From assembly GCA_963759805.1 (NCBI GenBank), contig CAVXAT010000002.1:96001-160000 (forward strand): DNA of 64,000 nt, written 5' to 3'. This document shows, piece after piece, positions 87 to 46,589 of this stretch (its first letter is position 1; every line of letters begins with the position of its first letter). Below the pieces are notes generated by a model. It was given only the letters and a program-made list of their open reading frames with translations. It did no database searches and was not told the DNA's origin. A program made the translations under genes and the position numbers. The stretch comes from an uncultured bacterium. GTDB taxonomy: Bacteria > Babelota > Babeliae > Babelales > RVW-14.

Positions 87-1421
87 ATGCTAGATCGAAA
101 TAAAATAGCCCAAGAACTTGAAAAATTAAACTCCAATATTTTTACTTATGACGACAAGCAGTTCAACACGGCCTGCAGTAAATGGCAGGAGATCATCCAA
201 AAACCCGATTTTAAAAAACAGGTCATAACGTCAAAAAGCTCATTTTTGCTACCAAGCTGGCAAGGCAGATTAACCGATGTATTTGAAATTAAACCTGATC
301 TTAAAAATTATGCTGTACTGGCCGTTGACGGATCACAAATTTATCCCGACAGACACATTTCGGGCATAAACTGTTTTTTAATCAACACGGGGCAATGTTT
401 GCTGGAGTATGGGCAAACAAGCAAGGCGACTCTGACATCACAGCCATATGTTTTCACACCGGACAATGTGTTTGAGCAAAAGCCGGCACCCTACTTCGCA
501 CCTGAAGTGCTACGACGGGCAGGCAGGCAGGACGATCCCTCGATACAAATTTGCTTCGCAAATTCACTCCCAGCCGTCGCTCTAACGAGCTATGGCGGGC
601 ACGGCGGGACGAGCGGGGGGGGCATCGAACCATTTCAACGGGTTCTTGATTTTGGGGATTTCTCACCCGATATAGTCGACTTAAAACGCGAAGAGCTTGA
701 ACTTGAAACTTCGTTTAAAACAGCACAGGAATTAAATCAAAAGTATTTAACTCAAAACAAACCGTTTGCCGTTTTTGCCGACGGCAGCCTAATTTTTTGG
801 CAACTTGAAAGCAAATCCCCTGAAGTTAAAAAACACTTTCTTACTAAATATTTTGAGCATCTGAACAGTTTTTATGAAAAAAATATCCCAATTGCCGGAT
901 ATATCAGCATGCCAAAAAGCCGTGAGTTAATAAATTTAATAAAAATCGGACTTTGTAGATTTGAAGTTGCCAACTGTATTCCATGCCACAGCATGCACAA
1001 AACGTTTCCATGCAAAGACGTTGAACATGTCCTGGACACGCAACTTACATCAACTTTTTTGAACCAAAATTTTAGAACAACAATTTTTTACAGCAGTTCA
1101 AAAGTCGTAGATCTTTATCCGGAACATTTAAAGCCATGCTTTGTTTATCTAAACGTGGGACAGGAGATTGTACGACTTGAATTCCCAATTTGGATGGCTC
1201 AAAATCCGAAATATCTGGATTTAATCTGTAAAATCGCAATTGATCAATCAATCAAAGGACAAGGGTATCCGGTAGTTCTGTCGGAGGCTCACGAACAAGC
1301 GGTAGTCAAAAATAACGACCAAGAGTTCTTTTATAAGTTAATTTGCAAAAAAAGCATCGAGCAAAATCAACGAATCTTACTTTCGCCCAAAAGCATTAAG
1401 AAGCATAATGTCAGTATTTAG
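87..1421 (+). CDS. nurA: NurA-family 5'-3' nuclease with an in-frame palindromic-repeat insertion
   Basis: Motifs AVDGSQ, FADGSL, GYIS, RLEFP, GYPxxLxEAHE typical of the NurA domain; GC-rich insert at about 483-647. Confidence 0.85.
   Translation: MLDRNKIAQELEKLNSNIFTYDDKQFNTACSKWQEIIQKPDFKKQVITSKSSFLLPSWQGRLTDVFEIKPDLKNYAVLAVDGSQIYPDRHISGINCFLINTGQCLLEYGQTSKATLTSQPYVFTPDNVFEQKPAPYFAPEVLRRAGRQDDPSIQICFANSLPAVALTSYGGHGGTSGGGIEPFQRVLDFGDFSPDIVDLKREELELETSFKTAQELNQKYLTQNKPFAVFADGSLIFWQLESKSPEVKKHFLTKYFEHLNSFYEKNIPIAGYISMPKSRELINLIKIGLCRFEVANCIPCHSMHKTFPCKDVEHVLDTQLTSTFLNQNFRTTIFYSSSKVVDLYPEHLKPCFVYLNVGQEIVRLEFPIWMAQNPKYLDLICKIAIDQSIKGQGYPVVLSEAHEQAVVKNNDQEFFYKLICKKSIEQNQRILLSPKSIKKHNVSI
489..524 (+). 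repeat. 36-nt hairpin element, copy 1 (in nurA)
   Basis: ccctacttcgcacctgaagtgctacgacgggcaggc; aligns with copies at 570, 37404 and 45747. Confidence 0.75.
535..616 (+). repeat. Palindromic host repeat with a nested 36-nt element (570-605), in nurA
   Basis: atccctcgatac-aaatttgc ttc gcaaatt-cactc | ccagccgtcgctctaacgagctatggcgggcacggc | gggacgagcgg. Confidence 0.8.
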
Positions 1422-1432
1422 ATACCAAATAT

Positions 1433-2596
1433 TTAAAGCAGCCGACCTAGCATTTTCAAATAAAGTCGTGGCATAAAATCCTGTAAAATCTTTGTAACTT
1501 TTTGATAATCTTCCGTACTAATCTCGGCTTTGGTCTCATGAGATGTTCCTGACTTGAGTTTTTGAGTTAAATCACCGTTCTCATCAAGTGAAATGTTTGG
1601 GATTTTCCAGTACCCACCCAAAATCTCAATTTTGGGAACACAATTATCAAAACATAAAATAAAAATCAATCTCATCGTTGGCTCATATAGTTTTTCGCCA
1701 ACCTGAATAATTTTTGAACCTACAAATTCCTGAACAAGACATAAGTCATTTTTATCATCCGCCCAAGATTTAAAGCGAGGATTGATATTTTGGGGTCTCT
1801 TTTTACTGCTATATAATCGTAATGTATATTTCAAAGTTTTTGCCAATTCCTCTTTTGAAACAATAAAAACCCCTTTTCCCATTGTTCCGCAAGCAGGTTT
1901 TATAACATAATAATCGCATTTAAATTCTTCTATAATCTCTTTTGCAGATTTTTGGGCATAACCGGAAACATCACACATATCTAATCGTTTGAGGATTTTA
2001 AATTTCGGACAATATTTACCAAATTCATCGTCATTTAAAATATTTACAGTATTAATCTTACTGTTGACATAAAATGCCGTGGCCAAGTCCCAAATTAAAA
2101 CATTCGGATATTTTTCCCTAAATATTCTAACACTATCATCCATAAAACTTGTACATATAATTGCTTTATAATTTGAAATTTTATAGGGATCTTTAACTGG
2201 TCCATCTTTAACCAGTGCTTTAAATTTACTGCTCTGTTCCAGCTTTTTCAACGACGGTAAAATGGCACCACCACACTTAATTAATGATTCAGTGGCCCTC
2301 ATCTCATCAAATTCGTTTGGTATATAAAAACCACCCACATGCCAAATTGGTAAATTAAATTGCTTTAAATAATTCCAATATTTATCCCAATAAAATCTAT
2401 TCATTCCCTTGAATGCAGAACGGCGACCTTCACCAAATTCACAAATTTTGAAATTTTGTCCATCAAATTTAAAATCAACGATACAAAATGAAATGTCTGC
2501 ACAAATTTGATCACCAAAATACGGAACACGACAGTAAACATTAAAAAAACAGGTAAGTCCCCCTATCAAATTTAATAACAACTTAACGTTTGGCAC
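1433..2596 (-). CDS. ATP-grasp-like ligase (circularly permuted) with signal peptide
   Basis: YVIKPACGTMGKGVFIV, LVQEFV, PTMRL; N-terminal VDFKFDG..KICEFG; paralog of 7667..8914. Confidence 0.65.
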   Translation of the reverse strand: MPNVKLLLNLIGGLTCFFNVYCRVPYFGDQICADISFCIVDFKFDGQNFKICEFGEGRRSAFKGMNRFYWDKYWNYLKQFNLPIWHVGGFYIPNEFDEMRATESLIKCGGAILPSLKKLEQSSKFKALVKDGPVKDPYKISNYKAIICTSFMDDSVRIFREKYPNVLIWDLATAFYVNSKINTVNILNDDEFGKYCPKFKILKRLDMCDVSGYAQKSAKEIIEEFKCDYYVIKPACGTMGKGVFIVSKEELAKTLKYTLRLYSSKKRPQNINPRFKSWADDKNDLCLVQEFVGSKIIQVGEKLYEPTMRLIFILCFDNCVPKIEILGGYWKIPNISLDENGDLTQKLKSGTSHETKAEISTEDYQKVTKILQDFMPRLYLKMLGRLL

Positions 2597-2610
2597 GACC
2601 TACACCCCTT

Positions 2611-3576
2611 TTATTTTTTTGATTTCAACAACGGATTTCCTTTTAACGGTTGATACTTTTTCATGGAACAAACAACCCGCAATATCTTTTTTTGAAGCTC
2701 TGTATCTACCTTAAAATCGTTCAATCCTGTCGCCCTATCAGCAACATATAAAATATCCGAAATAAACATATGCCTAAACCCGGACATTTCGAGCATTGGA
2801 TACACCATTGCATAATCACTACCCGTTTCAACAAAATCACCCTTATACATCAAATCTTCGCGCTTAATTTTTTTAAATAACCAGGCATAGTAGGATCTAA
2901 GCCCGGATGAATTCCAACCAAATTCTCTAAACTGATTTCTCTTAATAACATCATCAGGATATGCCTTTTGTGGTCGAATCATATTCTGTGGCCAGCTCAG
3001 CAAACTACCATATGTCATCCAAATATTTGGGTCCTGATAAATTTTGTTTAACAATGCCAAAACGTGATCATTCGCCCAGTAATCATCACCGTCGCAGGAT
3101 GCAATTATATCAAAATCATCACACATATAAACTGCATTGTATATATTGGCCATGGCTTTACGTCGCTCTGTATTCTTTATCAATATTACACGATGCTCTT
3201 GGTTTTTCTCTTTGATATATTTTTCGACCAAATCTCCGGTTCCATCAGGCGATGCATCATCAATATAAATTACATTATAGTTATCATATTTCTGCATAAA
3301 AATTGAATCGAGATTTCTTTTATAACGTGTACTGTTATTGTATGATGGAATAATAACAACAAAATGCTTTTCTTCGCTTGTTTTGAGCTCTTTTAACTTA
3401 TCCCAAAGGACATTATACACAGAAAGATCTACAACCCCATTTTTCATCGGCGCAGGAATGTATCTCTTTGAAGAACTAGTTTTTTTACATGTAACACGAT
3501 GTCCGGTATCATACGCAAAAGCTTCAAAACCAATAAATATTAAACATATAAGTAAAATAATCGATTTTTTTTTCAT
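2611..3576 (-). CDS. GT2 family glycosyltransferase with signal peptide
   Basis: IIPSYN, IDDASPDGT, CDGDDY; start MKKKSIILLICLIFIGFEAFA after AGGAG. Confidence 0.85.
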   Translation of the reverse strand: MKKKSIILLICLIFIGFEAFAYDTGHRVTCKKTSSSKRYIPAPMKNGVVDLSVYNVLWDKLKELKTSEEKHFVVIIPSYNNSTRYKRNLDSIFMQKYDNYNVIYIDDASPDGTGDLVEKYIKEKNQEHRVILIKNTERRKAMANIYNAVYMCDDFDIIASCDGDDYWANDHVLALLNKIYQDPNIWMTYGSLLSWPQNMIRPQKAYPDDVIKRNQFREFGWNSSGLRSYYAWLFKKIKREDLMYKGDFVETGSDYAMVYPMLEMSGFRHMFISDILYVADRATGLNDFKVDTELQKKILRVVCSMKKYQPLKGNPLLKSKK

Positions 3577-3697
3577 AGCAACAACACTCCTTTTTTTACT
3601 ATTGAAAAACATATATTAATAACTTATCATAAACTTATTCAAAGGGAAGATTTTTTAGGAAGAAATGCTTACTCGCAAAATCTTAAAGGAGAATATA

Positions 3698-4966
3698 ATG
3701 TTTAAGTACATGGCACTGTTTGTTTTTTCGGTGCTTTGCTTACCATATCCTCATTGTATATCTAAAAGTATATCAAAAACACATGAATCGTTTAAATACT
3801 TTGATTTTGGATATGATAGGGAAATAGATAAACAAAGTAATATTAATATTTTGTTAGCTCGATTTCGTAAAGCTGATTGCGGAGTTCAGCATCATATTTT
3901 TGCCTTGTATAAGCTACTGCTTGATGAAGGAATAAAAGTAAATATCGTAGTCATACAAAATACATCCCTGCAAAAAAGATTATACAACGCAAGACTTCCA
4001 CATTTTGCAATCAGTGAAAACCCCAAGGATGAATTTAATCATTTTTATTCTGCAACTAGCAAAATTTGTAAGCAAACAAAGGCAAATATTATTCATATTA
4101 ATGGTGCTAATTTAGAATATAGAGTTGCTCAAGCAGTTGCAAAAGATTTAAATCTAGCAATAATTCAACAACATCATGACTACAAAGAACCAAATTTAAA
4201 TATATGTAAAAATATTGATGCACTAATATTGGTTAGCCCAGAATTGACAATTCGTTTACCCCAAAAAGATATCTATAAAAATATCAATGTTAAATTTATA
4301 GTTTTTTTCCCACCATTATGCAATGAAGAAAAATTTTTGAATTTCAAACCAATGTACTCCAAAAAAGATTTTTTTAAAGAAAAATTTGGAATTGATATCA
4401 AAAAATCACCAATTTTATGCACCGTCGCAAATTTTTATTATTGTAAAAATCATGAAACCCTTTTCAAGGCCATTCATAATTTAATTTTTAAATATAAAAA
4501 TGAAGTACAACTTGTCCTTGCCGGAACGGGAACAAGTAAAAGAATCACACAACTAAAGAAACTTTGTATCGATCTGAAAATAGATTCCAATGTTTATTTT
4601 CTTAATTTTGTTGAAGATATTCCAGAACTTTTATATCACAGTGACATAAAAATTTTGCCTAGCATTGGAGAAGCATTTTCAATTGCAATAATAGAAGCAT
4701 CTTTGATGAAAAAACCAATAATTCTTTCAAAAACGGCAGGATCGGCTAACCTATTAATCAAAGACATGGAAACAGGCCTTTTATGCGATCCATATGATGC
4801 TGAAGATATAGCAGCACAAATTAATAAAATTTTGAACAATAAAGATTTGGCATTGAAACTTTCAGAAAATGTTTATAGCTTTGTCGTTAAAAATTTTTCA
4901 AGAAAAAACATAGGTCAAATCTATATTAATTTGTATGAAAAAGTTCTTAACAATTCCCGCAAATAA
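3698..4966 (+). CDS. GT4 family glycosyltransferase with signal peptide
   Basis: LPSIGEAFSIAIIEA (EX7E), ETGLL; start MFKYMALFVFSVLCL after AAGGAG. Confidence 0.85.
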   Translation: MFKYMALFVFSVLCLPYPHCISKSISKTHESFKYFDFGYDREIDKQSNINILLARFRKADCGVQHHIFALYKLLLDEGIKVNIVVIQNTSLQKRLYNARLPHFAISENPKDEFNHFYSATSKICKQTKANIIHINGANLEYRVAQAVAKDLNLAIIQQHHDYKEPNLNICKNIDALILVSPELTIRLPQKDIYKNINVKFIVFFPPLCNEEKFLNFKPMYSKKDFFKEKFGIDIKKSPILCTVANFYYCKNHETLFKAIHNLIFKYKNEVQLVLAGTGTSKRITQLKKLCIDLKIDSNVYFLNFVEDIPELLYHSDIKILPSIGEAFSIAIIEASLMKKPIILSKTAGSANLLIKDMETGLLCDPYDAEDIAAQINKILNNKDLALKLSENVYSFVVKNFSRKNIGQIYINLYEKVLNNSRK

Positions 4967-4985
4967 TTTTACTCAAAAAGCTTAT

Positions 4986-5840
4986 TTATTCCAAATCACT
5001 TTTCAATAAAGGCTTATATTGCGGTAGTTTTTTAATTTTTGAAGAAACATTCTTTGCTGTGTTAATAGATGCCTTATTATTTCTAAGCTTACGCCAATAA
5101 CTATTTGAGTTATCGGTATTGTAAACATACAGTATTTTGTTTATAAATTTTGAATGGAAACCGGACATTTCAAGCATAGGAAACATAATTGCCACATCAC
5201 CACAAACTCGAACAAATTTACCATCAAAGATCAAGTCCTCTATCTTAATTCTTTTATATAACCATGCATAAAAAGTACGCAAATGTGAGGTAACCCATTT
5301 ATATGATCTAATTTTATTTTTACTTATGATATCTTTTGGAAGGAATTCACTATTACCGGACTTTCCGCCCGGGTAGGTCATAAATCGCCCGTAAGTTATC
5401 CAAACACTCGAATCCAAATAAACTTTATTTAAATATTCAAGAACATCATCTCCCGCAAGCCAATCATCACCATCAACAATCAAGACTATCTCATCATCAT
5501 CAAGTGAATGAACGGCCCTATAAATATTCTCATGCGCACCAACATTAATTTTATTCTTAACAAGCCTAAATTTAGATTTTAATTCAGAATTGTTTTCTAG
5601 ATACGCTTGGATATAATCAGACATCCCATCATCTGAACAATCATCATAGTAAACTACTCTAAAATTTTTATAGGTCTGGCAGGCAATTGAATCTAAATAC
5701 TTTTGAACATATTTAACATTATTAAAGGAAGCAGTCACAACCGCAAATCGTTTTCCTACAAACTGTTTTGATAGATCTGGTTTTGAAAAACAGTTATTAA
5801 AACTCACAAACAACAAACTCAGTACTAAAACTTTCATCAT
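4986..5840 (-). CDS. GT2 family glycosyltransferase with signal peptide
   Basis: TASFN, YDDCSDD, VDGDDW, SHLRTF; hydrophobic N-terminus. Confidence 0.85.
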   Translation of the reverse strand: MMKVLVLSLLFVSFNNCFSKPDLSKQFVGKRFAVVTASFNNVKYVQKYLDSIACQTYKNFRVVYYDDCSDDGMSDYIQAYLENNSELKSKFRLVKNKINVGAHENIYRAVHSLDDDEIVLIVDGDDWLAGDDVLEYLNKVYLDSSVWITYGRFMTYPGGKSGNSEFLPKDIISKNKIRSYKWVTSHLRTFYAWLYKRIKIEDLIFDGKFVRVCGDVAIMFPMLEMSGFHSKFINKILYVYNTDNSNSYWRKLRNNKASINTAKNVSSKIKKLPQYKPLLKSDLE

Positions 5841-5848
5841 AATTTCTC

Positions 5849-7180
5849 CTAACTTCTTTTATATTCAGATTTTTCAATAATGCTACCGTTTTTTTTAGAC
5901 TCAATAGGCCTAGCCGCAATAACATTTTTATGCTCAATTACTTGCTTGTATAAATCCAAATAATGGCTTGATACTTTTTCAATAGACAAGTTATTCAAAA
6001 CAAATTCATAAGCATTTTCTCCAAGACTCTTTGCAAATCTAGGATCATTAATAAGCCTTTTTATCTGTAATGCGATGTCCTTGAATTTTTGGGGATCACA
6101 CAAAAGTCCCGATTTCTCGTGCTCTATAATCAATCCAGCCGTACCAGCAGTTCGAGAAAGAACTATTGGTTTTTTCATCAATGCAGCTTCAACAATAGCA
6201 ATGGAAAAAGATTCGCCCCAACTAGGCAAAACTTTTATATCAGAATGGAATAATAGCTCCGGGATATCACCAACATATCCAACAAAATAAACATTTTCTG
6301 CTATTTTCAATTTTTTACACAGTGCCTTATATTTTTCAACGCTTCTAGCTGGACCGGACCCAGCCAATACAACCTGAACAGGCATTTTTTCAACATAAAT
6401 TAACTCGTGAATAGCTTCAAGAAAAGTTTGATGATTCTTACAATAATAAAAATTAGCTATCATGCATATTACAGGACAATTTTTAATTTTGATTTTAAGT
6501 TTTTGCTCAAAAAACTCAGACCTTGAATATTTAGGACAAAATTTCAAAAACTTTTCATTGTCACAAATTGGCGGAATAAACTTTATGATACCTGGATTAA
6601 TAGCCCCATTTTCCTTTTTATTTTGCAAATCAGCAGTTAAGGCAGGACTCGATAAAATCAATGCATCAATATTGCTACATAAATTAAAATCAAAAACTTT
6701 GTAAGAATGATATTGTTGAACAATCATTAAATTAAATTTTTTTGCGAGAGCCTGCGCAATTTTTAGTTCAAAATCAAATCCATTAACATGAATTATTTTT
6801 ATGCCGAAGTTATCGCAAATTTTTGCTACACTGCTTGTATAAAATTTTAACTCTTTACTTGAAGTCCCTCCTGAAATAGCAAAGTGTGGAAGCTTGGCAT
6901 CAAGCAAGCGTTTTTGCAATTTTGTCCCCTTTGCAACAACAATATGAACATCTATTCCCATTTCATATAATTTTTTATAAAGAGTAAAAACATGATGCTG
7001 GACCCCGGTTTCAATTTTATGAAATCTAACTAAAAGAATTGGCACAATTTTTTTATTCACAGTTCGAATAACTCGCTTAGAACCAAAAGAAAAATACTCA
7101 AACCTACCGCTCTTTTCTTGCGCCAAACAGTTTTGAAAATAAAATAAAGAGAACATTAAAACAAAAGCCTGTATATTCAT
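5849..7180 (-). CDS. GT4 family glycosyltransferase with signal peptide
   Basis: LPSWGESFSIAIVEA; start MNIQAFVLMFSLFYFQNCLA; paralog of 3698 and 19542 genes. Confidence 0.85.
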   Translation of the reverse strand: MNIQAFVLMFSLFYFQNCLAQEKSGRFEYFSFGSKRVIRTVNKKIVPILLVRFHKIETGVQHHVFTLYKKLYEMGIDVHIVVAKGTKLQKRLLDAKLPHFAISGGTSSKELKFYTSSVAKICDNFGIKIIHVNGFDFELKIAQALAKKFNLMIVQQYHSYKVFDFNLCSNIDALILSSPALTADLQNKKENGAINPGIIKFIPPICDNEKFLKFCPKYSRSEFFEQKLKIKIKNCPVICMIANFYYCKNHQTFLEAIHELIYVEKMPVQVVLAGSGPARSVEKYKALCKKLKIAENVYFVGYVGDIPELLFHSDIKVLPSWGESFSIAIVEAALMKKPIVLSRTAGTAGLIIEHEKSGLLCDPQKFKDIALQIKRLINDPRFAKSLGENAYEFVLNNLSIEKVSSHYLDLYKQVIEHKNVIAARPIESKKNGSIIEKSEYKRS

Positions 7181-7268
7181 TGGGCCCTCTTTCATTTTTA
7201 AATTATTTTTTAATCTCACGCAATGGATTATACTGTGTTAAATGCCTTATGTATGTATCAATTTCGAT

Positions 7269-7403: not shown

Positions 7404-7427
7404 TTTTCAAATTTGGATAAATTATTC

Positions 7428-7601: not shown

Positions 7602-7666
7602 AAAGAAAAATCCTAATAAATTATTATAAACGTATCAAAATAAAGTATCAAACGAAAGGGAGATTG

Positions 7667-26386: not shown

Positions 26387-27184
26387 CACTCTATCCTTAT
26401 CGAAAAAGACCCCGTCCAAAAAACAATTTATCAATGCCAAAATATTAAGTAAACAAAAATTATAAAATATAACCAAGCAAAAAACATAAAAATCAATATA
26501 TAAATTCTCTTGACTTTTATATTTAAAATCATAAATAATTATCCTATTGATCAAAGAAATTAGAGAAAAGGATATGAGTGAGAAACAAATACTTCCTTAA
26601 ACAATTTGCTATATTTTTTTTAATTCCATTAGCAACACAGTCAATGACAGCAACAAATACAAATAATATGGTAATAAATACCAAATTAATTCAATTTAAT
26701 GAATCAATAGACAATGCATATAATGCATCCATAATTGAGTATGGCAGTGGGTACCTTTTAATTTTTCGACATGACACTGAAAATAAATTATGTGCATGTG
26801 GGTACAAACAACCACAAATTAAAATGGTGTGCCTAAATAAAAATTTCGAACAAGTAACTCCTATTAAAAATGTTGAAATTAAAAAAGCAACCTCAAAAAC
26901 AAATTTGACAGAGAAGCTTATTCCATTTACACCAGAAGATGCACGAATACACTCTTGTCGTAGACAGTTGTTTTTAACTTATAATAGCGATGTTGATGTA
27001 CATCAACATACTACGAAGAGTAAAACTCCATGGAGAAGACAGATGTTTAAAGGGAAATTCGACCCCAAAAAAGCTTACCTTTCAGATATTGAACAAATTC
27101 CATCAAATAATATTCCATTAACACTTGTTGAAAAAAATTGGACCCCATTTGAATATCCTGAAGGATCCGGGGGGCTTTATTATA

Positions 27185-28186
27185 ACGCCAGTTCGATAAT
27201 TAGTTAAGGCTTGGAATTTCAGCAAAAAACCCCACACCTATCGCAGGTTTGTGTTGATGAAAAGAATAGGCTGAAATTGCAGCAAAAACATTCGTGAAAA
27301 AATTTTTAACACATCTATGTCTAGTATGTTCGATTTTAAAGGTATTTTTCAGGATATTGTTAACAGATTCAATGATGTTTCGTTTTTTTAGAAAAAGTTT
27401 TTCAAAAAAGATCATGAGCTTGTTTTTCATACCCTTTTTAAGCTTTGTTATAAGCTTGAGACCACGCCTAAAAAGTTTTTCAAAAAGAGGTTGTGATATA
27501 TAACCACGATCGCCAAAAAGCCAACCCCAAAGATTTTTTGTAACTTTAGAAATAACTGATTCGTTACGGTCATCAGTATTTCCTGGGGTAATCCAAAATG
27601 ACAAAATTTCACCGAAATGATTAATCACAAGATGGAGTTTGAACCCATAAAACCAGCCCATTGATGATTTTCCGCGCTGAGCAATACCCTTAAAAACTTT
27701 GTGTGAGTAAATTCGAAGATTGTGGCACACAACCAATTTTGTGGAATCAATAAAGGCAATACCGCGCATATTTTTACTGTTGCGACTTGCAGCAAATAAT
27801 GCCAATGGCTCTGCAGCCTCATGCATTAACTCAGTAAAGCGAGTGTAGCTAACCAAAGCCCCAAAGGCTGTTTTCAATTCTTTGCAAACATGGTCTTTGT
27901 AATATCTTTTGAATGTGTGATATCCAGAATAATGAAAATATACGCAAATCGTAAGAATATCGCTTAGAGTCATGCCTCGTGGGCGTCCTGCAGCATTTAA
28001 CGTGTTATTCTTTACTCTCTTTTCTTTAACATATTTTTCATATTGCTTGCAAAAATCATCAATTTCGCAAAAAATAGTTGTTAAGAACATGTTTAGCCTT
28101 TCTCTTTTTTTTTGAGGGTTTCATTTTTCTCAATTTAAACGAGAAAGGCTTTTTTTAAAGAACTTTTTTAATTATCGAACTGGCGT
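27185..28186 (-). mobile_element. IS982-family insertion sequence (1002 bp)
   Basis: Perfect 18-bp terminal inverted repeats acgccagttcgataatta; 7-bp direct repeat TATTATA at 27178-27184 and 28187-28193. Confidence 0.95.
27200..28090 (-). CDS. IS982-family DDE transposase
   Basis: IFCEIDDF, FIDST, GWFYGFKLH, GDRGY, RNIIES, IEHTRHR. Confidence 0.95.
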   Translation of the reverse strand: MFLTTIFCEIDDFCKQYEKYVKEKRVKNNTLNAAGRPRGMTLSDILTICVYFHYSGYHTFKRYYKDHVCKELKTAFGALVSYTRFTELMHEAAEPLALFAASRNSKNMRGIAFIDSTKLVVCHNLRIYSHKVFKGIAQRGKSSMGWFYGFKLHLVINHFGEILSFWITPGNTDDRNESVISKVTKNLWGWLFGDRGYISQPLFEKLFRRGLKLITKLKKGMKNKLMIFFEKLFLKKRNIIESVNNILKNTFKIEHTRHRCVKNFFTNVFAAISAYSFHQHKPAIGVGFFAEIPSLN

Positions 28187-36804: not shown

Positions 36805-38379
36805 ATGGTTACGTTTTTTAACAAAATTTATGGATGCCAAGCAAATTTTGCAGACTCACAAGGCCTTGCCAAATTTTTAATAGAACTGGGGTGCATACCT
36901 GTTGATTCCGAACGGAATGCCGATCTGATAATTATTAATACCTGCGCAATCCGCGAAAAGGCAGAACAGAAGCTTTATTCATACATTGGCAGACTGGCAG
37001 AATTAAAAAAAGATAAACCCCATCTGAAAATTGGTGTTATCGGTTGCGTAGCCAGCTACAAGAAAAAAGAGTTTTATGAATACTTTGAATGCATCAGTTT
37101 CGTCCATGGTGCACGCGAGGAAATCGCTGCACTGCAGGGATATTTGGCTGAATTAATCTCAAATATTCAAACAGCAAAGAATTTATTTATACAAAATCCG
37201 GATTCAAAAATAAAATATTTAAAACAGGATCGTAGGCTAAAAAAGATATTTGACAAAAGGGCCATTGGCTCAACCCGAATTAACACAGATCCAAGCAGTA
37301 TCAGCAGACTTAATTTAAACGAGCATATCAAAGATGAATCAAACAAAGACAGGCGACTTCTTCTGAAACCCGGCGCGTCACCAAGTGATGGTTCGACAAG
37401 CTCCCAGGCTTCGCCCTTCGTGGCTACGCCGGGCACGGCACCACGAGCGCGCCTGCATTCAGAACAAATATCTGATGTTCGAGCCATGATTAACATCATG
37501 ACCGGATGCAACAAATACTGCTCCTACTGCATCGTGCCATTCACCCGCGGACGCGAAATAAGCTATCCGATGGCCGACATTTTAAATGCCGTAAAAAAGG
37601 ATCTTGATCGTGGGGCAAAAGAGATCACATTAATTGGCCAAAATGTCAATTCTTACATTGATCCACAAACCGGCACTCGCTTCCCTGATCTTTTACAAAA
37701 AGTTGCATCAATTGAGGGGGATTTTTGGGTACGATTTGTAAGCCCACATCCACAAGATATGACAAAAGATCTGTTTCAAGTTATGGCAGACAACAGACCA
37801 AAACTTACTGCTTTTTTGCACTTTCCGCTGCAGTCCGGATCAGACACAATTCTAAAAGCCATGAACCGAAACTACACAGTGGCAGAATTTTTAGAAAAAA
37901 TAGGCTGGATTAAAGAGTTAATGCCGGATGCAGGGATAACTACAGATATAATCGTCGGATTTCCGGGAGAAACCGAGCAGGATTACTTGGCAACTCGGAA
38001 AGTAATGGAAATGGTAAAATTTGACCAAATTTACTCATTTATTTACTCCAAACGCAAATTTACCAAAGCTTATAACATGCCAGATGATTGTACCCAGGAG
38101 GAAAAGGCTCGACGTTTAAGCGAACTGCAAAGGCGCCAGCGAGAAATCTCTTTGGAACAAAACAGGGAAAAGATTGGCAAAACTTTGAAAGTTCTTATTG
38201 AAAAAGAGCTAGAGCCTGGTAAACTTTTAGCAAGAACAGAAGCAAACGCTCGGGTACTTATAACAGGTAAAAATGCGAGTTTAGTTGGCAGCTTTGTGAA
38301 CGTGAAAATTGAAAGTACTACGGTTGTTAACTTGTCAGGGGTTTGTCATCCTGAACTCGTTTCAGGATCCATGGATTAG
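36805..38379 (+). CDS. miaB: tRNA methylthiotransferase MiaB with a long linker insertion
   Basis: YGCQ.N, NTCAIREKAE, GCVA, CNKYCSYC, QSGS, DIIVGFPGET, TRAM domain. Confidence 0.9.
   Translation: MVTFFNKIYGCQANFADSQGLAKFLIELGCIPVDSERNADLIIINTCAIREKAEQKLYSYIGRLAELKKDKPHLKIGVIGCVASYKKKEFYEYFECISFVHGAREEIAALQGYLAELISNIQTAKNLFIQNPDSKIKYLKQDRRLKKIFDKRAIGSTRINTDPSSISRLNLNEHIKDESNKDRRLLLKPGASPSDGSTSSQASPFVATPGTAPRARLHSEQISDVRAMINIMTGCNKYCSYCIVPFTRGREISYPMADILNAVKKDLDRGAKEITLIGQNVNSYIDPQTGTRFPDLLQKVASIEGDFWVRFVSPHPQDMTKDLFQVMADNRPKLTAFLHFPLQSGSDTILKAMNRNYTVAEFLEKIGWIKELMPDAGITTDIIVGFPGETEQDYLATRKVMEMVKFDQIYSFIYSKRKFTKAYNMPDDCTQEEKARRLSELQRRQREISLEQNREKIGKTLKVLIEKELEPGKLLARTEANARVLITGKNASLVGSFVNVKIESTTVVNLSGVCHPELVSGSMD
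37388..37449 (+). repeat. Host repeat tggttcgacaagctc|accacgagcg with a nested 36-nt element (37404-37439), in miaB
   Basis: Same composite as the reverse complement of 45736-45797. Confidence 0.85.
38344..38369 (+). repeat. 26-nt palindromic repeat tgtcatcctgaactcgtttcaggatc inside the miaB 3' end
   Basis: 24/26 identical to the reverse complement of 57056-57081. Confidence 0.8.
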
Positions 38380-38541: not shown

Positions 38542-38554
38542 GCTTATCGTATGT

Positions 38555-38641
38555 GCCGGGGTGGCGAAATTGGTAGACGCAAGGGACTTAAAATCCCTCG
38601 GGTGTAATCCACCCATACCGGTTCGAGTCCGGTCCTCGGCA
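38555..38641 (+). tRNA. tRNA-Leu (TAA), CCA not encoded
   Basis: GCCGGGG...CCTCGGC-A acceptor stem, anticodon arm aggga cttaaaa tccct, long variable arm, GTTCGAGTC. Confidence 0.95.
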
Positions 38642-38723
38642 CTCTCCTACGCTTTCGCCCTGTGGGCTCATAGCTACGAAGAGCAGGCCATCCTAAATTT
38701 ACGCGCTACACAGATGGCACGGC
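38642..38723 (+). repeat. Two degenerate hairpin-element copies directly after tRNA-Leu
   Basis: ctctcctacgc...gctacgaagagcaggc and ccatc...cgcgctac..gatggcacggc share the gctac core and caggc/cacggc tail. Confidence 0.55.
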
Positions 38724-38731
38724 CACCCAAA

Positions 38732-39769: not shown

Positions 39770-40048
39770 AAAATTCCTAAAAAAAAGCCAAACAGTTCTA
39801 TCTTGAACGTAACTATAACAAAATGACCCCTAAAAACTGAAGCTTCTTCAAAAAAAATTTATACCATTTTTTGCTTTATTAAAAAGCAAAAAATGGCGCT
39901 CCCCCCCGTCGAACTTAAACATTATAACAAAGACACTTGACAAATCTGATGTGATCAGCAATTATGTGATATAATATATTTTAAGTATGGTGAAATCGTA
40001 AGTGTAACACTATTGATATCCTAACTTTATGTTGGATAGGAGATTTCT

Positions 40049-40321
40049 ATGAATAAGGCAGAATTAATTGAGCATATGGCGAAGAGTACAAAACTCTCCA
40101 AAGCTGCATGCAAAGGTGCTATCGAGTCAATCATCGAAGCGGTAGAATCAACATTGAAAAAAGGTAAAGATGTTGTTTTGACAGGCTTCGGAACATTTAC
40201 CGTTATCAGAAGAAAAACAAGAATTGGCATAAATCCTGCAACAGGAAATAAGATGACAATCCCTGCTAAAAAAGTTCCTAAATTTAAGCCCGGCAAACAA
40301 CTTAAGGATGCAGTTCTCTAA
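40049..40321 (+). CDS. hup: HU family DNA-binding protein
   Basis: MNKAELI, GFGTF, GINPATG, PKFKPGKQLKDAV. Confidence 0.95.
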   Translation: MNKAELIEHMAKSTKLSKAACKGAIESIIEAVESTLKKGKDVVLTGFGTFTVIRRKTRIGINPATGNKMTIPAKKVPKFKPGKQLKDAVL

Positions 40322-40348
40322 ACAAGAGCTAACTGATTTCAATTAGTA

Positions 40349-40386
40349 AAAACAAGGCGCAGATATCTGCGCCTTGTTTTATTTTC
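40349..40386 (+). terminator. Rho-independent terminator after HU
   Basis: Perfect palindrome aaaacaaggcgcagatatctgcgccttgtttt plus T-rich tail. Confidence 0.8.
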
Positions 40387-40516
40387 ACAACTTCCTATAT
40401 TTTAACAACATTTCAAACGACTTTATAAAATTCTTTGCAAAAAAAATCATCCTCACGTTAAACTTTTATGAATGTTAAATACATTTTCAATTTTTAACTG
40501 TGAGAGGATCGGAATT

Positions 40517-40939
40517 ATGGAAAGTAACACACTGAGTACTACACTGACAAGCACACTGGATAAAGTAAAGACAGCCTGGAATGACTTTGATTTAAATAAA
40601 TGGTCAAACGAAGTTGGTGGAAGCTCCCCGGTAGCAGAAGCAATTCAGGCAGGTATATATTTCTGCATCAGTTTTGGAATTGGATATATTTTAAAAAAAC
40701 ACTTCAAAACTATAGTATTGAGCCTGCTTTTAAGCGCACTAATCGTCAAAGGAATGGAGTACGGCAAACTGCTTACAATAGATTGGAACGCTATAAAAAA
40801 CATGTTTGGGGCATCATCAGCTGATAGTAAAGATTTTATGACCCCAATGGTAAATCATGGAATTGAGTGGATTAAAAAGAACGTAATTGTATCCATAGCA
40901 TCACTCATCGGATTTCTACTTGGCAGCAGATTAGGATAA
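40517..40939 (+). CDS. FUN14-like membrane protein
   Basis: FGIGYILKK, hydrophobic helices, IDW, GFLLG terminal pattern. Confidence 0.6.
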   Translation: MESNTLSTTLTSTLDKVKTAWNDFDLNKWSNEVGGSSPVAEAIQAGIYFCISFGIGYILKKHFKTIVLSLLLSALIVKGMEYGKLLTIDWNAIKNMFGASSADSKDFMTPMVNHGIEWIKKNVIVSIASLIGFLLGSRLG

Positions 40940-40943
40940 AGAT

Positions 40944-42206
40944 ATGGATGACGGCACACTAAACACCTCATCCACATACTCACTATTCAACACTGAAGAA
41001 AAAATAACCCAAAATATGAGTTCTGATCCTATAATCGATTATGTGGATCAGATCATTTACAACGCAATCTCCATGCACGCATCTGATATCCATATGCAGC
41101 CTGAGGAGATGGGTGCTCGTACACGATACCGAATTGACGGCACACTCTACGACCAAGACGCAATAAATCCGGACATGCTAAAACTCGTGATTTCTCGAAT
41201 AAAAATCATTGCGGGATTGGATATAGCAGTTCAACGGCTTCCTCAAGATGGTAAAATCAAATTAAATATTAAAACACGTCCAACTGAAGCTAGTATACAA
41301 AATCAAAACCAATTTCAAGATCAAGATCAAGTTATAGATCTTCGAATTTCAACTTTTCCGTCAACATATGGCGAAAAAATGGTTGTCAGAATTCTTGATC
41401 GATCACACAATCTTTTAAATCTTGAATCTCTTGGCATGAATTCCAAAATGCTCACACATATCCAGAGTTTAATTAAAAAACCTCATGGATTTTTCTTGGT
41501 AACAGGTCCAACAGGATCCGGCAAAACAACAACTTTATATGCCATTCTTTCGGAATTGAATAAACCGGGAATAAACATTGTTACAATGGAAGATCCGGTT
41601 GAGTATGCCGTTCCGGGTATTACACAAAGCCAAGTAAATGACAAAGCAGGCTTTAGTTTCCAAAATGGATTGCGCTGCATGCTACGCCAGGACCCTGATA
41701 TTATAATGATTGGTGAAATACGGGATAAAATCACAGCGCAAATTGCAATTGAAGCCTCACTTACCGGACATCTTGTTTTTAGCACGTTGCACACAAACGA
41801 TGCCGCAGGGGCAGTCACTCGGCTTCTTGATATGGGAGTTGAACCATTTCTCATCAATGCTACGTTGACCGGAGTTTTGGCTCAAAGACTTGCTCGTAAG
41901 CTTTGCAATAAATGTAAAAGCGAGACAGAATCTAAAAATCCTGACATAAAAAATCTAAAAACTAATTTTGCAGCACCCGGCTGTGCTGACTGCTTTAATC
42001 TTGGGCACAAGGGACGCCTAGGCGTTTTTGAATTATTGGTTTTGGATGATCAGATAAGAGATCTGGTTTTGCAAAAAGCTGCAACAACAAACGTTGTGCA
42101 ACAGGCGCTAAAAACCGGAATGCAGACATTGATGAATGATGGGCTGGAAAAGGTTAATAGCGGACAAATTTCGCTCGAAGAGTTGTATGCAACTGTAACA
42201 GTTTAA
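40944..42206 (+). CDS. GspE/PilB-family secretion/pilus ATPase (no N-terminal domain)
   Basis: ASDIH, PQDG, TGPTGSGKTTT, EDPVE, LRQDPD..GEIRD, TGH..STLH, CxxC...CxxC. Confidence 0.92.
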   Translation: MDDGTLNTSSTYSLFNTEEKITQNMSSDPIIDYVDQIIYNAISMHASDIHMQPEEMGARTRYRIDGTLYDQDAINPDMLKLVISRIKIIAGLDIAVQRLPQDGKIKLNIKTRPTEASIQNQNQFQDQDQVIDLRISTFPSTYGEKMVVRILDRSHNLLNLESLGMNSKMLTHIQSLIKKPHGFFLVTGPTGSGKTTTLYAILSELNKPGINIVTMEDPVEYAVPGITQSQVNDKAGFSFQNGLRCMLRQDPDIIMIGEIRDKITAQIAIEASLTGHLVFSTLHTNDAAGAVTRLLDMGVEPFLINATLTGVLAQRLARKLCNKCKSETESKNPDIKNLKTNFAAPGCADCFNLGHKGRLGVFELLVLDDQIRDLVLQKAATTNVVQQALKTGMQTLMNDGLEKVNSGQISLEELYATVTV

Positions 42207-42222
42207 CGTCGAAACCAAAATT

Positions 42223-42251
42223 AAAAGGCCCGGGTTTCCGGGCCTTTTTTT
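42223..42251. terminator. Bidirectional terminator between convergent genes
   Basis: aaaaggcccgg gttt ccgggcctttttt. Confidence 0.8.
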
Positions 42252-42262
42252 ATAAGCTTTGT

Positions 42263-43480
42263 TTAATAAACTCTTTTAGTCCATTCTATAGGATCAACTG
42301 AAATATTTCTTACTCGTAACTCCCAATGTAGGTGGTATCCATTGGCATATCCGGTCATTCCAAGATTACCGATTGGATTCCCCTTTTTAACTATATCGCC
42401 AACATTAATATCTGCAAAATTTTCTAAGTGAAAGTAAAGTGTGAAAACTCCGCAACCATGATCCAAAACAACAGTGTTGCCCGATATTAAAAAGCGATCT
42501 TTTATAATAACTCTTCCAATTTGACTTGCCCAAACTACCGCCTTTGGATTATCTATCAAATCAACCCCACGATGCATATATCTCCCCAACTCAGGAGTCA
42601 TTCTTATCTCTCCAAAAGGCGTTGAAATTCGTTTGACATTTACAGGGAATTCAAATGGCCCATGCCACATTTTTTCTTTGGGTGACTGCTCAAGCCAACG
42701 CACAATTGCTTCGTCCAAAACCTTGGCACTTGCGCTAATCTCTTTTTCTTCCTCAAGTTTTTCCTTTTTCACAGTAAATCCGCGCTGATGAGGAAATTGG
42801 AATTCAATAATCCGGACTTGCGAATTTAGTTTCAAGTTATTATTTACTAGATCTTCCAAACACGCAGTGAGTTGATACTCTGCAGCAGCAGTCTCAGTTT
42901 CAATTGGAATAAAACATTCATAAGTTGTTGAGCCTTTGGAATCAGGAAAACATTCATATTTTGCAGATAAAAACTCAACTTCAGCTTTTGCCAGTTTTTT
43001 GTTTGATCGAATCTTAATATGCAACGTTTTGCCCTGATCAACCTTATAACCGGACTCTATAAATGCCGCCATAAGAGGGCTGTTGTCAACGCAAAACTCT
43101 GTCGACTGTACAGCTTTATTTTTATTAAAACTTGAATCTATAGCATAGACATCAAGCTTATGTTTTCCATCCGAATACGTTCTAATGTCTGTTGAGATTG
43201 GTATTTCAAATTTCTTCGCTCCAACCTTTTTTACCCCATTGAATTCAACCTCTTTCCCATCAATCAAAACACCAATTGGGGAAATTTTATAACCGGTATC
43301 TGCACAAACCGAGAACTTAAGCTCTTTTGCAAATGCTAAGTCAGTCTCAATTCCGCTAAGAGAAAACTTGGGCGCAGTGCTGTATGAAAAATATGTGTAT
43401 ATTGAACTTGCAATCCAACCTATTACACAGAAAATAACAATACCGCTGACAACCAATGGAAAACGTAATTTGTTAAACAT
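42263..43480 (-). CDS. M23 family metallopeptidase, membrane anchored
   Basis: HRGVD, GNTVVLDHG, YFHL, GYHLHWE. Confidence 0.9.
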   Translation of the reverse strand: MFNKLRFPLVVSGIVIFCVIGWIASSIYTYFSYSTAPKFSLSGIETDLAFAKELKFSVCADTGYKISPIGVLIDGKEVEFNGVKKVGAKKFEIPISTDIRTYSDGKHKLDVYAIDSSFNKNKAVQSTEFCVDNSPLMAAFIESGYKVDQGKTLHIKIRSNKKLAKAEVEFLSAKYECFPDSKGSTTYECFIPIETETAAAEYQLTACLEDLVNNNLKLNSQVRIIEFQFPHQRGFTVKKEKLEEEKEISASAKVLDEAIVRWLEQSPKEKMWHGPFEFPVNVKRISTPFGEIRMTPELGRYMHRGVDLIDNPKAVVWASQIGRVIIKDRFLISGNTVVLDHGCGVFTLYFHLENFADINVGDIVKKGNPIGNLGMTGYANGYHLHWELRVRNISVDPIEWTKRVY

Positions 43481-43743
43481 ATCCTACTTTCAGACATAAA
43501 ATTAGATAAAAAATTAGACAATAACAAACCTAGGTCTATAAAATACATCATTTTTAAAGCTCTTCAAATAAAATTTGATAATTAATTTAAAATCAACAGT
43601 TTTTATCACTTTTAGCGAATTTGGATCTAAATATTGGGTTAAAAAGCGAAAAAACAACACCCATTTGAATAATAGAAAATATTCCCATACAATGTAAGTA
43701 TAGTTTATGTAACAATAACATTTTGTATTTTATAGGAATTAAC

Positions 43744-44724
43744 ATGAATTTAAGAAAAATATTTTTAATCACAGCTCTCTTCACCTCTCCATTTTATTTA
43801 ATTTATGGAATGGATGACAAAATGGATGACGGAAGGGATGATGAATTCCGTTGTTTTTTAGGAGTTCCACAACCATTATTAGAATATGAGGCTATGGAAC
43901 AATCATCTGATGCAACCCATGAAGATTTGCAGATGCAGACATCTGATGCACAATCTTTGGTGGAAAAAATTAAACACGAAATCACAACTCTAAATCTTAC
44001 AGCAATTGGGTCACTGTTGGCATCTGAGCCTGCGGCAAGATTGACCAGCGAACAAAGACGAGAGCTCTATCAAGAAGCACTCGGCCGTGAGGAAGAAATT
44101 TCAAAATTACTTGAAGACGGAATTTGCATATCAGGTGCAGCTGGCAATATAGAAAGAATCATTAGCTATCTTTATGCATTTCAGTTTATTGAAAAATTTG
44201 AATTCCCTAGAACGTTATTTACCAATCCACCTTATCATCGCAAAATTCATCCTGAAATTGGGCCCAATGTGCCATTAAATTCAGTTCTAGATGCATTAAT
44301 AAAAAACGAGAAGGAAGGTATATTAGTTTGTTGTTTTCATATTTCAGATTCTGAGATAGCAAAATCTTTGATGTTTAGAAATAGGGTTGGTGTCAAAGTT
44401 GAAATTGTAACCAATCAACAACAGGCCGAGAACATGTCAGCAATTAAACTTTTAATTAGAAGTGGCATCGAGGTGTCATGTCCAGCTGGACACCGATTCG
44501 AAACCGACCATCATAAATTCATTATATTTAAACGTAATATATTAAATAAATGTCTTGTTTGGCATGGTTCATATAATCCAACAAATTTCTCTAATACAAG
44601 CGCATGGGAAGACGTAACAATAGATGACAATCCAGAAGTACACCAACGCTATTCAGCCAGATTTCTGGAAATTAAGGCCGCCAGTACACGTATGACAATA
44701 GATATGCTGCCCAAAACACACTAG
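43744..44724 (+). CDS. Secreted phospholipase D/Nuc-like protein (single HKD-type motif)
   Basis: HHKFIIFK...WHGSYNPT...WED; signal peptide MNLRKIFLITALFTSPFYLIYG. Confidence 0.7.
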   Translation: MNLRKIFLITALFTSPFYLIYGMDDKMDDGRDDEFRCFLGVPQPLLEYEAMEQSSDATHEDLQMQTSDAQSLVEKIKHEITTLNLTAIGSLLASEPAARLTSEQRRELYQEALGREEEISKLLEDGICISGAAGNIERIISYLYAFQFIEKFEFPRTLFTNPPYHRKIHPEIGPNVPLNSVLDALIKNEKEGILVCCFHISDSEIAKSLMFRNRVGVKVEIVTNQQQAENMSAIKLLIRSGIEVSCPAGHRFETDHHKFIIFKRNILNKCLVWHGSYNPTNFSNTSAWEDVTIDDNPEVHQRYSARFLEIKAASTRMTIDMLPKTH

Positions 44725-44789
44725 ATCTAATTCATGTATATTTTAAATAAAAAAATAAACTTGTATAACTGTATCGGAAATTTGAACTC

Positions 44790-46589
44790 ATGAAAGAGAT
44801 TGATAGTAAAAATCTAGAAACACAGATCAAAAATCTTCCCAGAAACTCTGGCGTTTATCTTTTTAAAGATTCTCAGGATCTTGTTTTGTATATTGGCAAA
44901 GCCAAAAACTTAAAAAGTCGCGTATCAAGTTATTTAAAAAGCGATGACATAAAATCCTACTCACTACGGCAAGAGAGTGAGCATCTAGATTTTATAGTAA
45001 CAAAAAATGAACTTGAAGCCATGCTTCTTGAAGCAAAATTAATTCAAACGCATCAACCGAAATTCAATGTACTTTTGAAAACTGGGCAGCCTTTTTTATG
45101 GATTCTAATAAGCCAAAATCTATCATCTGTCACATTACCTGAACTTAAGCTTGTACGTAATCAAAAACAGAAAGGCACATATTTCGGCCCATTTTTAGAA
45201 AAAAACTCGGCACGAAAGGTTTATGATTTCCTAATCAAGACATTCAGATTAAAACTGTGCAAAAAAAAGATTCCTAGCGGCTGCCTTGCGTACCACATGG
45301 GAATCTGTGCAGGAAAATGTAGACCTGATTTTGATAAAAACAGTTATCTGGAAAGAATCGAGCTTGCAAAGTTTGCACTAAAGAACAATCATGCCGAATT
45401 TTTAAAACATTTAAAAAGTTTAATCAAAGAACATAACAAAAAGATGGAATTTGAAAAGGCTCGTCAACTTCACAGTTATATGGCTGCATTTGAGAGAGTT
45501 TTTGATATTCTTGAAACTAAGCCAATAACAAAATTCAAACTCGATGAAAAAGATATCTGGTTTTTAACAGAAGACAAGTCTGCACTATTTTTATTTAAAG
45601 AGAAAAACAGTGTTCTTATAAAAAAAGAGGCTTTTTACTTTCCCAAAGAGTATCAATTGCCAGCCCAGTTTCTGGCTCCATTAGAACAAACCCTTCGACA
45701 GGCTCAGGGTGAGCGCAGAGAGCACCTTGAAGAACCCGCTCGTGGCGCCTGCCCGCCGAAGCTAAACCTAAGCGAAGGCTGGGAGCTTGTCGAACCATTT
45801 CAATGGGTTCTTAAGGCTCAGAAGAGGGCTCAGAAAAACTCTAATATCAAAGAATCTAGTTATCTAGATTTTTTTGAAAGTTACTATCGAACTTATCCCG
45901 CCCCATCAATCATTTTAGTTAATTTTGAAATTGATAATGCAACCCAAAAACTTTATCAAAAATTCATAAAATCTTGGCATAAGAAAAGTTATGACGTCTC
46001 AATAATAATGAAGCCCGAATCCGGCCACTTTGCCAATCTGATCAAGTTAGCAAAAATTCATGTAGATGCAGAAATATCAAAACAGGCCACAATTCCAAAA
46101 GCACTGAAAAGTCTACTAAAACTCCCAATTGAGCCCCACACTATTGATTGTTTTGATATTTCACATAAACAGGGCATGTACATGGTTGGATCATGTGTAC
46201 GTTTTGCCGATAACATCCCGGACAAAAAAAATTTTAGGCATTTTTATATAAAAAGCATAGAACAACAAAATGACTATGCCGCGTTGCATGAAATTGTTCA
46301 ACGCAGGTACAGAAATACAAACGAACTTCCCGATTTAATCTTAATTGATGGAGGCAAGGGGCAACTCAACGCCGTCCAGAAACTATTTCCACAGGCAGAA
46401 TTTGCAAGCTTGGCAAAAAAAGAAGAAACTGTTTTTTCTAAACGAATTCCTGAGGGTAAAAAACTGAATTTAAAAAGTTTTGTGGGACAAACATTAACCG
46501 CTCTTAGAGATTATGCACACCACTTTGCGATAAGTTTTCATCGCAAAGTGGAACACAAAAATTCATTTGATATTAACTCAATCGATTGA
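44790..46589 (+). CDS. uvrC: Excinuclease UvrC (shortened, with in-frame repeat insertion)
   Basis: GVY..YIGKAKNLKSRV GIY-YIG, Cys-rich region, FDISH, DYAAL, LIDGGKGQ, RDYAHHFA; no C-terminal HhH domain. Confidence 0.88.
   Translation: MKEIDSKNLETQIKNLPRNSGVYLFKDSQDLVLYIGKAKNLKSRVSSYLKSDDIKSYSLRQESEHLDFIVTKNELEAMLLEAKLIQTHQPKFNVLLKTGQPFLWILISQNLSSVTLPELKLVRNQKQKGTYFGPFLEKNSARKVYDFLIKTFRLKLCKKKIPSGCLAYHMGICAGKCRPDFDKNSYLERIELAKFALKNNHAEFLKHLKSLIKEHNKKMEFEKARQLHSYMAAFERVFDILETKPITKFKLDEKDIWFLTEDKSALFLFKEKNSVLIKKEAFYFPKEYQLPAQFLAPLEQTLRQAQGERREHLEEPARGACPPKLNLSEGWELVEPFQWVLKAQKRAQKNSNIKESSYLDFFESYYRTYPAPSIILVNFEIDNATQKLYQKFIKSWHKKSYDVSIIMKPESGHFANLIKLAKIHVDAEISKQATIPKALKSLLKLPIEPHTIDCFDISHKQGMYMVGSCVRFADNIPDKKNFRHFYIKSIEQQNDYAALHEIVQRRYRNTNELPDLILIDGGKGQLNAVQKLFPQAEFASLAKKEETVFSKRIPEGKKLNLKSFVGQTLTALRDYAHHFAISFHRKVEHKNSFDINSID
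45690..45812. repeat. Inverted pair of ttcgaca(a/g)gctc repeats with a nested 36-nt element (45747-45782, minus strand), in uvrC
   Basis: cccttcgacaggctcagggtgagcg ... ccgctcgtggc|gcctgcccgccgaagctaaacctaagcgaaggctgg|gagcttgtcgaaccatttcaatgggttctt. Confidence 0.85.

Follow-up and report, generated by a model that had tools for sequence, protein, structure and literature searches.

A mobile-looking hairpin repeat nested in nurA, miaB and uvrC of an uncultured Babelota bacterium and its candidate GIY-YIG nuclease

The closest described counterpart of the system considered here is SsnA (cd10448), which cuts single-stranded DNA (ssDNA) next to its own hairpin repeat, the NTS; the main text of its description notes an NTS-ssnA-NTS layout like that of an insertion sequence and puts mobility forward as a hypothesis (Chenal et al. 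2025, PMC11893778). Intragenic palindromes are also known, among them the Rickettsia palindromic elements (RPEs), which are ~150 bp long and encode a conserved peptide per family (PMC10969869), and the CGTC class of repetitive extragenic palindromes (REPs), which apparently lack a transposase (PMC3733652). Here, a further hairpin repeat family, termed A, is described from a 64,000-nucleotide (nt) stretch of DNA of an uncultured Babelota bacterium, referred to as the window (G000:C2:96001-160000, G000 being the 1.5-Mb source genome in 21 contigs), in which copies of A lie within nurA, miaB and uvrC. By analogy with SsnA and its NTS, the reading favored here, at a probability of roughly 55%, is that A is a mobile hairpin inserted at fixed bonds and that it is likely the recognition site of a tRNA-linked GIY-YIG nuclease of a clade termed c3, whose nicks would spread it.

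Similar to the Ssn/NTS pair, A combines a small single-domain GIY-YIG gene with that gene's own dispersed hairpin family, which carries a short unpaired tag. The Ssn/NTS design itself is matched by a second clade, c1, together with the palindrome family C; c3 proteins have ~80 residues, whereas the CGTC-bracketed c1 proteins have ~94 and are taken as Ssn by flanks and size. The NTS and SRM have a CGTC/TGTC tag and an 8-9-bp stem; A instead combines an internal loop with a CA(C)RG tail. The NTS often lies on both sides of its gene, whereas A is found for the most part upstream, where two inverted copies follow a tRNA; A, unlike the NTS, also nests in other repeats. The main text of PMC11893778 makes no mention of tRNA, cd10449 or cd10456. 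With RPEs and the intragenic GTAG and CGTC REPs, A shares the in-frame placement of GC-rich palindromes in unrelated genes for housekeeping, DNA repair and tRNA modification, with linkers or loops as frequent sites, as described in the main texts (PMC10969869, PMC3733652). It differs from RPEs in its length (30-76 nt), its unrelated peptides and its phylum, a distinction drawn on unit size and peptides, and from intragenic REPs in carrying neither a GTAG nor a CGTC terminal tag. In common with the REP/REPIN systems of REP-associated tyrosine transposases (RAYTs), A is a short, imperfect, tagged hairpin that forms inverted dimers beside a nuclease gene and is a target of the IS110 family, but its neighbor encodes a GIY-YIG and not an HUH enzyme. 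In-frame palindromes and a hairpin-GIY-YIG pair are already known, and A departs from each of these systems in its tag, unit length, nuclease clade or one-sided linkage. A literature search covering titles, abstract openings and main-text passages, with supplements and the consensus sequences of PMC3733652 outside the comparison, turned up neither A nor the tRNA-c3 cassette.

The original prediction, made from the letters of the window, had placed four hairpins of exactly 36 nt (12 codons) in nurA, miaB and uvrC. The sequences lie where it put them and share one fold, but their limits are corrected here: three copies start 1 nt further 5′ (569-604, 37403-37438 and 45748-45783), the first nurA copy is 35 nt long (489-523), and a fifth copy at the end of a tRNA-Leu gene had been missed. 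Unit ends were set by comparing filled with empty sites. In all three genes, A does not interrupt the gene sequence directly; it sits within larger inserted palindromes of a family termed B; a further host family is termed C. G002 and G003, named below, are relatives of G000 in the same genus (congeners). The features are as follows.

87 to 1421, plus strand: nurA coding sequence (CDS), 444 amino acids, host gene (open reading frame; Pfam NurA, PF09376)
479 to 616 (approximate limits), plus strand: composite insert in nurA, 138 nt, in-frame, with two A copies inside a B-type palindrome (the G003 orthologue has a gap here)
489 to 523, plus strand: A hairpin nurA-1, 35 nt, with a degenerate outer stem (4/6 pairs)
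569 to 604, plus strand: A hairpin nurA-2, 36 nt, occupying the loop site of the B palindrome
36805 to 38379, plus strand: miaB CDS, 524 amino acids, host gene (TIGR01574 over cut-off)
37361 to 37464 (approximate limits), plus strand: composite palindrome within the linker between MiaB domains, a net gain of 75 nt against G002
37403 to 37438, plus strand: A hairpin in miaB, 36 nt, at a B loop site
38344 to 38371, plus strand: TGTC-tagged (CGTC-family) palindrome C, empty of A, encoding the last MiaB residues (CHPELVSGS)
38555 to 38642, plus strand: tRNA-Leu(TAA) gene (ARAGORN; Rfam)
38642 to 38687, plus strand: fifth A hairpin, 46 nt (not a multiple of three), separating discriminator base and CCA at the 3′ end of tRNA-Leu
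44790 to 46589, plus strand: uvrC CDS, 599 amino acids, host gene (TIGR00194 over cut-off)
45691 to 45709, plus strand: core of a B palindrome in uvrC, its A site empty (between 45704 and 45705)
45748 to 45783, minus strand: A hairpin in uvrC, 36 nt, within a second B palindrome (exact 36-nt gap in the G002 orthologue)

The A family extends throughout G000. An nhmmer profile built from 18 seed copies gave 114 matches in the genome and none in its reverse, and a structural descriptor gave 111 matches as opposed to 2 in the reversed genome and 0, 2 and 2 in local shuffles; the genome scan proposed with the original prediction thus returns about 110 copies, so the repeat is not confined to the copies first seen. 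Removal of two poor descriptor matches left 109, and the collapse of identical copies with identical flanks left 85 unique ones. The nurA-1 copy was not picked up by the descriptor. The element has an outer stem of 6 bp, in some copies with a single bulged base, then a 3x3 internal loop and an inner hairpin that is closed by GC and varies in length; its tail is CA(C)(A/G)G. The descriptor requires at least 5/6 outer-stem pairs, which builds in the pairing rate and leaves the variety of pair types free to vary: among the 85 copies, pair 1 is C-G in 42, T-A in 35 and G-C in 6, and pair 4 is G-C in 61, T-A in 16 and A-T in 4. This covariation bears out the proposal that compensatory changes conserve the structure, and the mean GC content of 65%, against 34.7% for the window, likewise agrees with a GC-rich element in an AT-rich genome. 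The tails are CAGG (37), CAAG (25), CACGG (18), CACAG (4) and CAGGG (1); because the tail belonged to the descriptor, a tail-free search was also made, and neither it nor the 85 copies showed a terminal GTAG tag. The strand with the tag 5′ is slightly more stable in 42-43 of 56 copies under RNA and DNA parameters alike, which does not discriminate between the two. Rfam models matched only tRNAs in the window at gathering score, and at E ≤ 0.1 their matches in five loci lay only over tRNA genes.

A occupies defined bonds in its targets. The loop bond of B palindromes is empty in 44 cases and filled by A in 21, the arm bond of the TGTC-tagged C palindromes is empty in 39 and filled in 9, and 14 of 42 tRNA 3′ ends carry A between the discriminator base and CCA. 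Further copies lie in the D-arm and T-loop of copied tRNA fragments and inside other A copies; about eight distinct target types occur. The base before A is T or A in 81 of the 85 copies and the base after it C in 67, with CT preceding the site in 34, and one B bond is occupied by differing A subtypes. No target duplication is seen in the filled/empty pairs; sites whose following base is not the same as A's first base both fix the ends and establish this absence. Three alternative accounts of the ends were rejected. A one-nucleotide target duplication fails since the left pyrimidine has as its partner the base that precedes the tail, and copies that start with T stand before C with no duplication; an outer stem templated from the target is unsupported outside tRNA ends (p 0.23; identity of left arm and downstream sequence 1.94, null 1.87); and a tail derived from target duplication was observed 3 times against 7.8 expected. 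With its asymmetric tail and no target-site duplication, A also lacks the features that characterize miniature inverted-repeat transposable elements of the terminal-inverted-repeat type. Tandem arrays are found at two tRNA loci. Nine copies of a tRNA-Val 5′ end lie upstream of an intact tRNA (L001:3440-4210, G000 C19:8460-9209), each with A in the D-arm and two with a second, nested A, and at C14:13220-13646 each of three tRNA-Arg 3′ units carries A at CCA and an opposite-strand A in the T-loop of the duplicated fragment.

The link to c3 was seen among small GIY-YIG loci from 30 family genomes, with UvrC matches left out. A tree of 57 proteins resolves three clades, c1, c2 and c3, with c3 on a separate supported branch, and profiles assigned 91 loci to them. 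The c3 and c1 profiles are 30% identical; the nearest solved relatives of c3 are UPF0213 (1zg2, 2e-10) and SLX1 (2e-9), NCBIfam holds no family name for c3 or c2, and c3 presumably corresponds to cd10449. G000 has five small GIY-YIG genes: B brackets two of them and C one, and the other two stand behind a tRNA and A. Across the family genomes, A lies within 300 nt upstream of 34 of 37 c3 genes, 3 of 33 c1 genes and 6 of 21 c2 genes, and downstream of c3 in 8 of 37; a tRNA motif accompanies c3 at 30 of 37 loci. CGTC-type repeats are found at 32/33 c1 loci and 3/37 c3 loci, and C repeats lie on both sides of c1 in 29/33. B-type brackets were detected at 5/21 c2 loci by a narrow regular expression and at most c2 loci by eye from printed flanks. 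In L086, L087 and others, the loops of the B-type inverted repeats that bracket the c2 gene vary between genomes; c2 is not covered in the sections of the Ssn paper compared here (PMC11893778).

The same arrangement recurs in other phyla. From 597 relatives of c3 in GTDB genomes, the best 80 were taken; 9 of these are titled TM6, Babeliales or Dependentiae, and the remainder come from Alphaproteobacteria, Verrucomicrobiota, Acidobacteriota, Planctomycetota, Patescibacteria and others. In this best-80 set, A is upstream of 70 and downstream of 5, where shuffles lead one to expect 0.4, and a tRNA is near 55. The usual cassette order is tRNA, a forward A starting from or just after CCA, a spacer, a reverse A and the c3 gene; it is found in the cultured genera Bradyrhizobium, Mesorhizobium and Brevundimonas. 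In L141 and L121, a duplicated tRNA 3′ fragment lies behind the c3 gene and carries A in its T-loop, resembling an attachment-site scar. Co-occurrence points the same way: among 81 genomes of the phylum, the strict A pattern is present in 46 of the 50 that have c3 and 10 of the 31 that lack it, and none of 20000 permutations within families was as extreme; the counts are 34/50 and 4/31 when at least 3 matches are required. The control clade c1 shows no such association (A in 12/15 genomes with c1 and 44/66 without, p 0.37). Proximity to either RAYT or GIY-YIG genes had been suggested as a check on the original prediction; one clade of the small GIY-YIG genes is linked to A, and no RAYT was found in the 81 genomes.

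Within genes, A occurs mostly at lengths that keep the frame. Simple in-house gene calling gave 1221 genes (86% coding). Lengths divisible by three were found in 26 of 30 copies in called CDSs and 27 of 79 outside, the latter being the one third expected by chance; among unique copies the counts are 23/27 and 21/58 (Fisher p 2.3e-5). Four CDS copies have other lengths, one in a false call over a tRNA and the others in proS, rlmN and acs, and in proS and rlmN the net gain over orthologues is nevertheless a multiple of three (+27 and +57 nt). Most simply, then, the 12-codon length once taken as a fixed unit is what survives, not what inserts. We infer that the bias arises because frameshifts are selected against, and that the host proteins carry the translated inserts as loops that they tolerate. 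A lies in 26 called genes, at least one of them spurious (over a tRNA); the hosts named, from the 20 of these 26 that were scanned, include alaS, proS, dprA, ABC-F, mnmA, acs, sufD, dnaE, murD, truA and rlmN. Copies in CDSs occupy all six strand/phase classes. In the window, too, the open frames in NurA, MiaB and UvrC and the differing phases and strands stand as first described, and the four copies, read as PYFAPEVLRRAG, LPAVALTSYGGHG, SQASPFVATPGTA and ACPPKLNLSEGWE, yield four unrelated peptides.

Orthologues in relatives show the sites without A. In uvrC, G002 has the same composite minus exactly 36 nt, and G003 lacks the composite. Against G003, nurA has a net gain of 138 nt; in G002, it has a B-type host palindrome with the A site empty, the rest being diverged. 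The net gain in miaB is 75 nt against G002. A solo copy with clean ends in proS is missing from all three congeners shown, orthologues of rlmN are likewise empty, and the gene at C1:138226 has no ortholog in the three congeners. Together with the copy number and the 26 called genes, these empty sites uphold the idea of a non-autonomous mobile hairpin that adds peptide segments to proteins. All 23 genomes searched have a NurA orthologue. In an otherwise confident model of NurA, the insert forms the main stretch of low pLDDT (< 50, residues 132-190), although low pLDDT is expected anyway wherever alignment coverage is thin. In MiaB and UvrC, the inserts are located between domains, and a 62-nt stretch of the miaB A region recurs identically at C11:45582-45643. 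Outside the inserts, the genes are under purifying selection, with proportions of nonsynonymous differences (pN) of 0.06-0.13 and of synonymous differences (pS) of 0.54-0.59. Inside the uvrC insert common to G000 and G002, pN is 0.086 and pS 0.054; because pN is at or above pS there, selection at the peptide level is not seen, nor is conservation of the inserts as protein.

Two side observations concern these genes. The MiaB C-terminal residues CHPELVSGSMD (window 38344-38379) come from the TGTC-tagged palindrome, and MiaB of G011 likewise ends in PELV. In the window segment 45690-45860, compared with L057, the core of the palindromic uvrC insert is ~96% identical between G000 and G002 and the gene 82%. 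Elsewhere in the window, near-identical stretches ~1 kb apart occur at 50809 and 51864 and also in 26765-28179; these are probably gene duplications.

In the mechanism favored here, which is modeled on SsnA and NTS, c3 would bind A in ssDNA and nick beside the hairpin, and host repair would copy A into structured single-stranded targets, namely tRNA ends, other palindromes and A itself. Transfer RNA ends would be safe targets, as CCA is restored or can be added. Copies in coding DNA, alone or within B or C, would persist only if they are a multiple of three in length, free of stops and placed in a loop. Binding and cutting of A by c3 as ssDNA is suggested by this analogy, and the linkage of A to c3 is consistent with c3 nicks driving its spread. 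Several observations weigh against this reading. A GIY-YIG nuclease hydrolyses, and strand transfer by such an enzyme is not known; it gives a nick and not a joint, so the insertion step would have to come from host repair or another partner. The tail-free descriptor behind the 37-locus count was written after the c3 flanks had been viewed, which makes the 80-locus set the more independent test. Part of the A-c3 co-occurrence is trivial because the cassette itself carries A. The p-values given here overstate the evidence, as kin are not independent. With 74 matches, G000 is the richest in A among the 81 genomes, yet one of its two c3 genes stops after 69 codons and the other runs off a contig end, and four c3-negative genomes, all incomplete drafts, have 10-15 matches. 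A stands mainly on one side of c3, unlike the NTS, which brackets ssnA. Near-identical B+A composites recur at many loci and probably spread as one unit, so that independent A insertions number well below 85. The host repeat in uvrC shared by G000 and G002 has a pS of 0.05 in a gene with a surrounding pS of 0.56; this excess identity points to gene conversion or DNA-level constraint, and it allows both a gain of A in G000 and a loss in G002.

Several of these observations would suit a passive origin, in which A is mainly the structured leader or trailer of a tRNA-nuclease transcript, spread by gene conversion and slippage and carried inside B and C as these are moved by c2 and c1/Ssn. The position of A 5′ of c3 (70 against 5 in the best-80 set), the near-identical composites and the surplus identity in uvrC are in keeping with it, and the arrays at C19:8460-9112 and C14 resemble slippage. 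Unrelated A subtypes nevertheless occupy one bond, and homology exchange cannot make each first insertion at some eight target types or the clean solo copy in proS, so that this origin is judged unlikely. At the level of the peptides, open frames in genes under purifying selection might suggest that the inserts are selected modules functional in NurA, MiaB and UvrC; the four unrelated peptides, the absence of the inserts from close orthologues, the pN and pS values of the shared uvrC insert and the six strand/phase classes make this scarcely credible.

As for other enzymes, the mobilization by RAYT/HUH transposases inferred in the original prediction is not borne out: the RAYT model NF047646 stays under cut-off in G000 and is absent from all 81 phylum genomes sampled. 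A more general version, in which an IS200-type TnpA or an undetected RAYT moves A in trans by peel-and-paste, draws on the lack of target duplication, the imperfect hairpin with its short tag and the CT before 34 of 85 sites, features that fit HUH chemistry, and on the 5 Y1_Tnp matches in G000. The stem, mismatch and GC-closed loop of A also resemble GTAG-3 REPs as the main text of PMC3733652 presents them. None of the five Y1 genes is bracketed by A, however; one lies ~190 nt from a tRNA-end A, but an identical copy of that gene lacks that A, and A has neither a constant target tetranucleotide nor a terminal GTAG tag. A HUH mover is accordingly rated as quite improbable. Very improbable, and rejected as movers, are the resident IS110 bridge recombinase and a reverse transcriptase. 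All three IS110 copies lie inside A at a GCT^ bond, the same bond at which A nests in A, but they repeat a CT core at their ends, which A insertions do not, and the targets of A are too varied for one guide. IS621-like IS110 elements reportedly target REPs, and the IS110 of G000, landing in A in 3/3 copies, is similarly a secondary parasite of A and not its mover. These copies, at C1:253220-254430, C1:2776-3995 and C2:1-1223 (L267, L268), interrupt A at GCT^ATGG with the CT core repeated, one of them ending at a contig edge; by eye, the non-coding region at the left end contains short segments that match the target and the joined ends, which is what a bridge RNA directed at A would be expected to show. 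The only support for a reverse transcriptase is one reading frame on contig C20 (L266); it has 599 codons, resembles a eukaryotic reverse transcriptase of the non-long-terminal-repeat (LINE) type, and lies on a 4.8-kb contig that is possibly host DNA in the bin.

A broader picture may be drawn tentatively, as possible rather than probable. One-domain GIY-YIG nucleases, instead of HUH or DDE transposases, could constitute widespread minimal selfish elements that mobilize their own hairpins as ssDNA, with at least three clades each having a private hairpin (Ssn-CGTC, c2-B and c3-A). A would parasitize the other two, tRNA genes and itself, insert scarlessly and grow protein loops stepwise, from an empty gene to a host palindrome to a palindrome with A, as in uvrC of one genus.

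A is a real, mobile-looking repeat with a specific candidate enzyme. For the origin of intragenic palindromes that have no transposase, such as RPEs and CGTC REPs, it offers a candidate enzyme of ~80 residues, together with defined ends, defined target bonds and one exact filled/empty pair, and the c3 cassette in cultured genera makes the question testable at the bench. If c3 is indeed a sequence-specific ssDNA nuclease, the Ssn principle would take in a second clade, one that recognizes a different motif. For annotation, A accounts for unusual GC-rich loops in some two dozen core proteins of G000.

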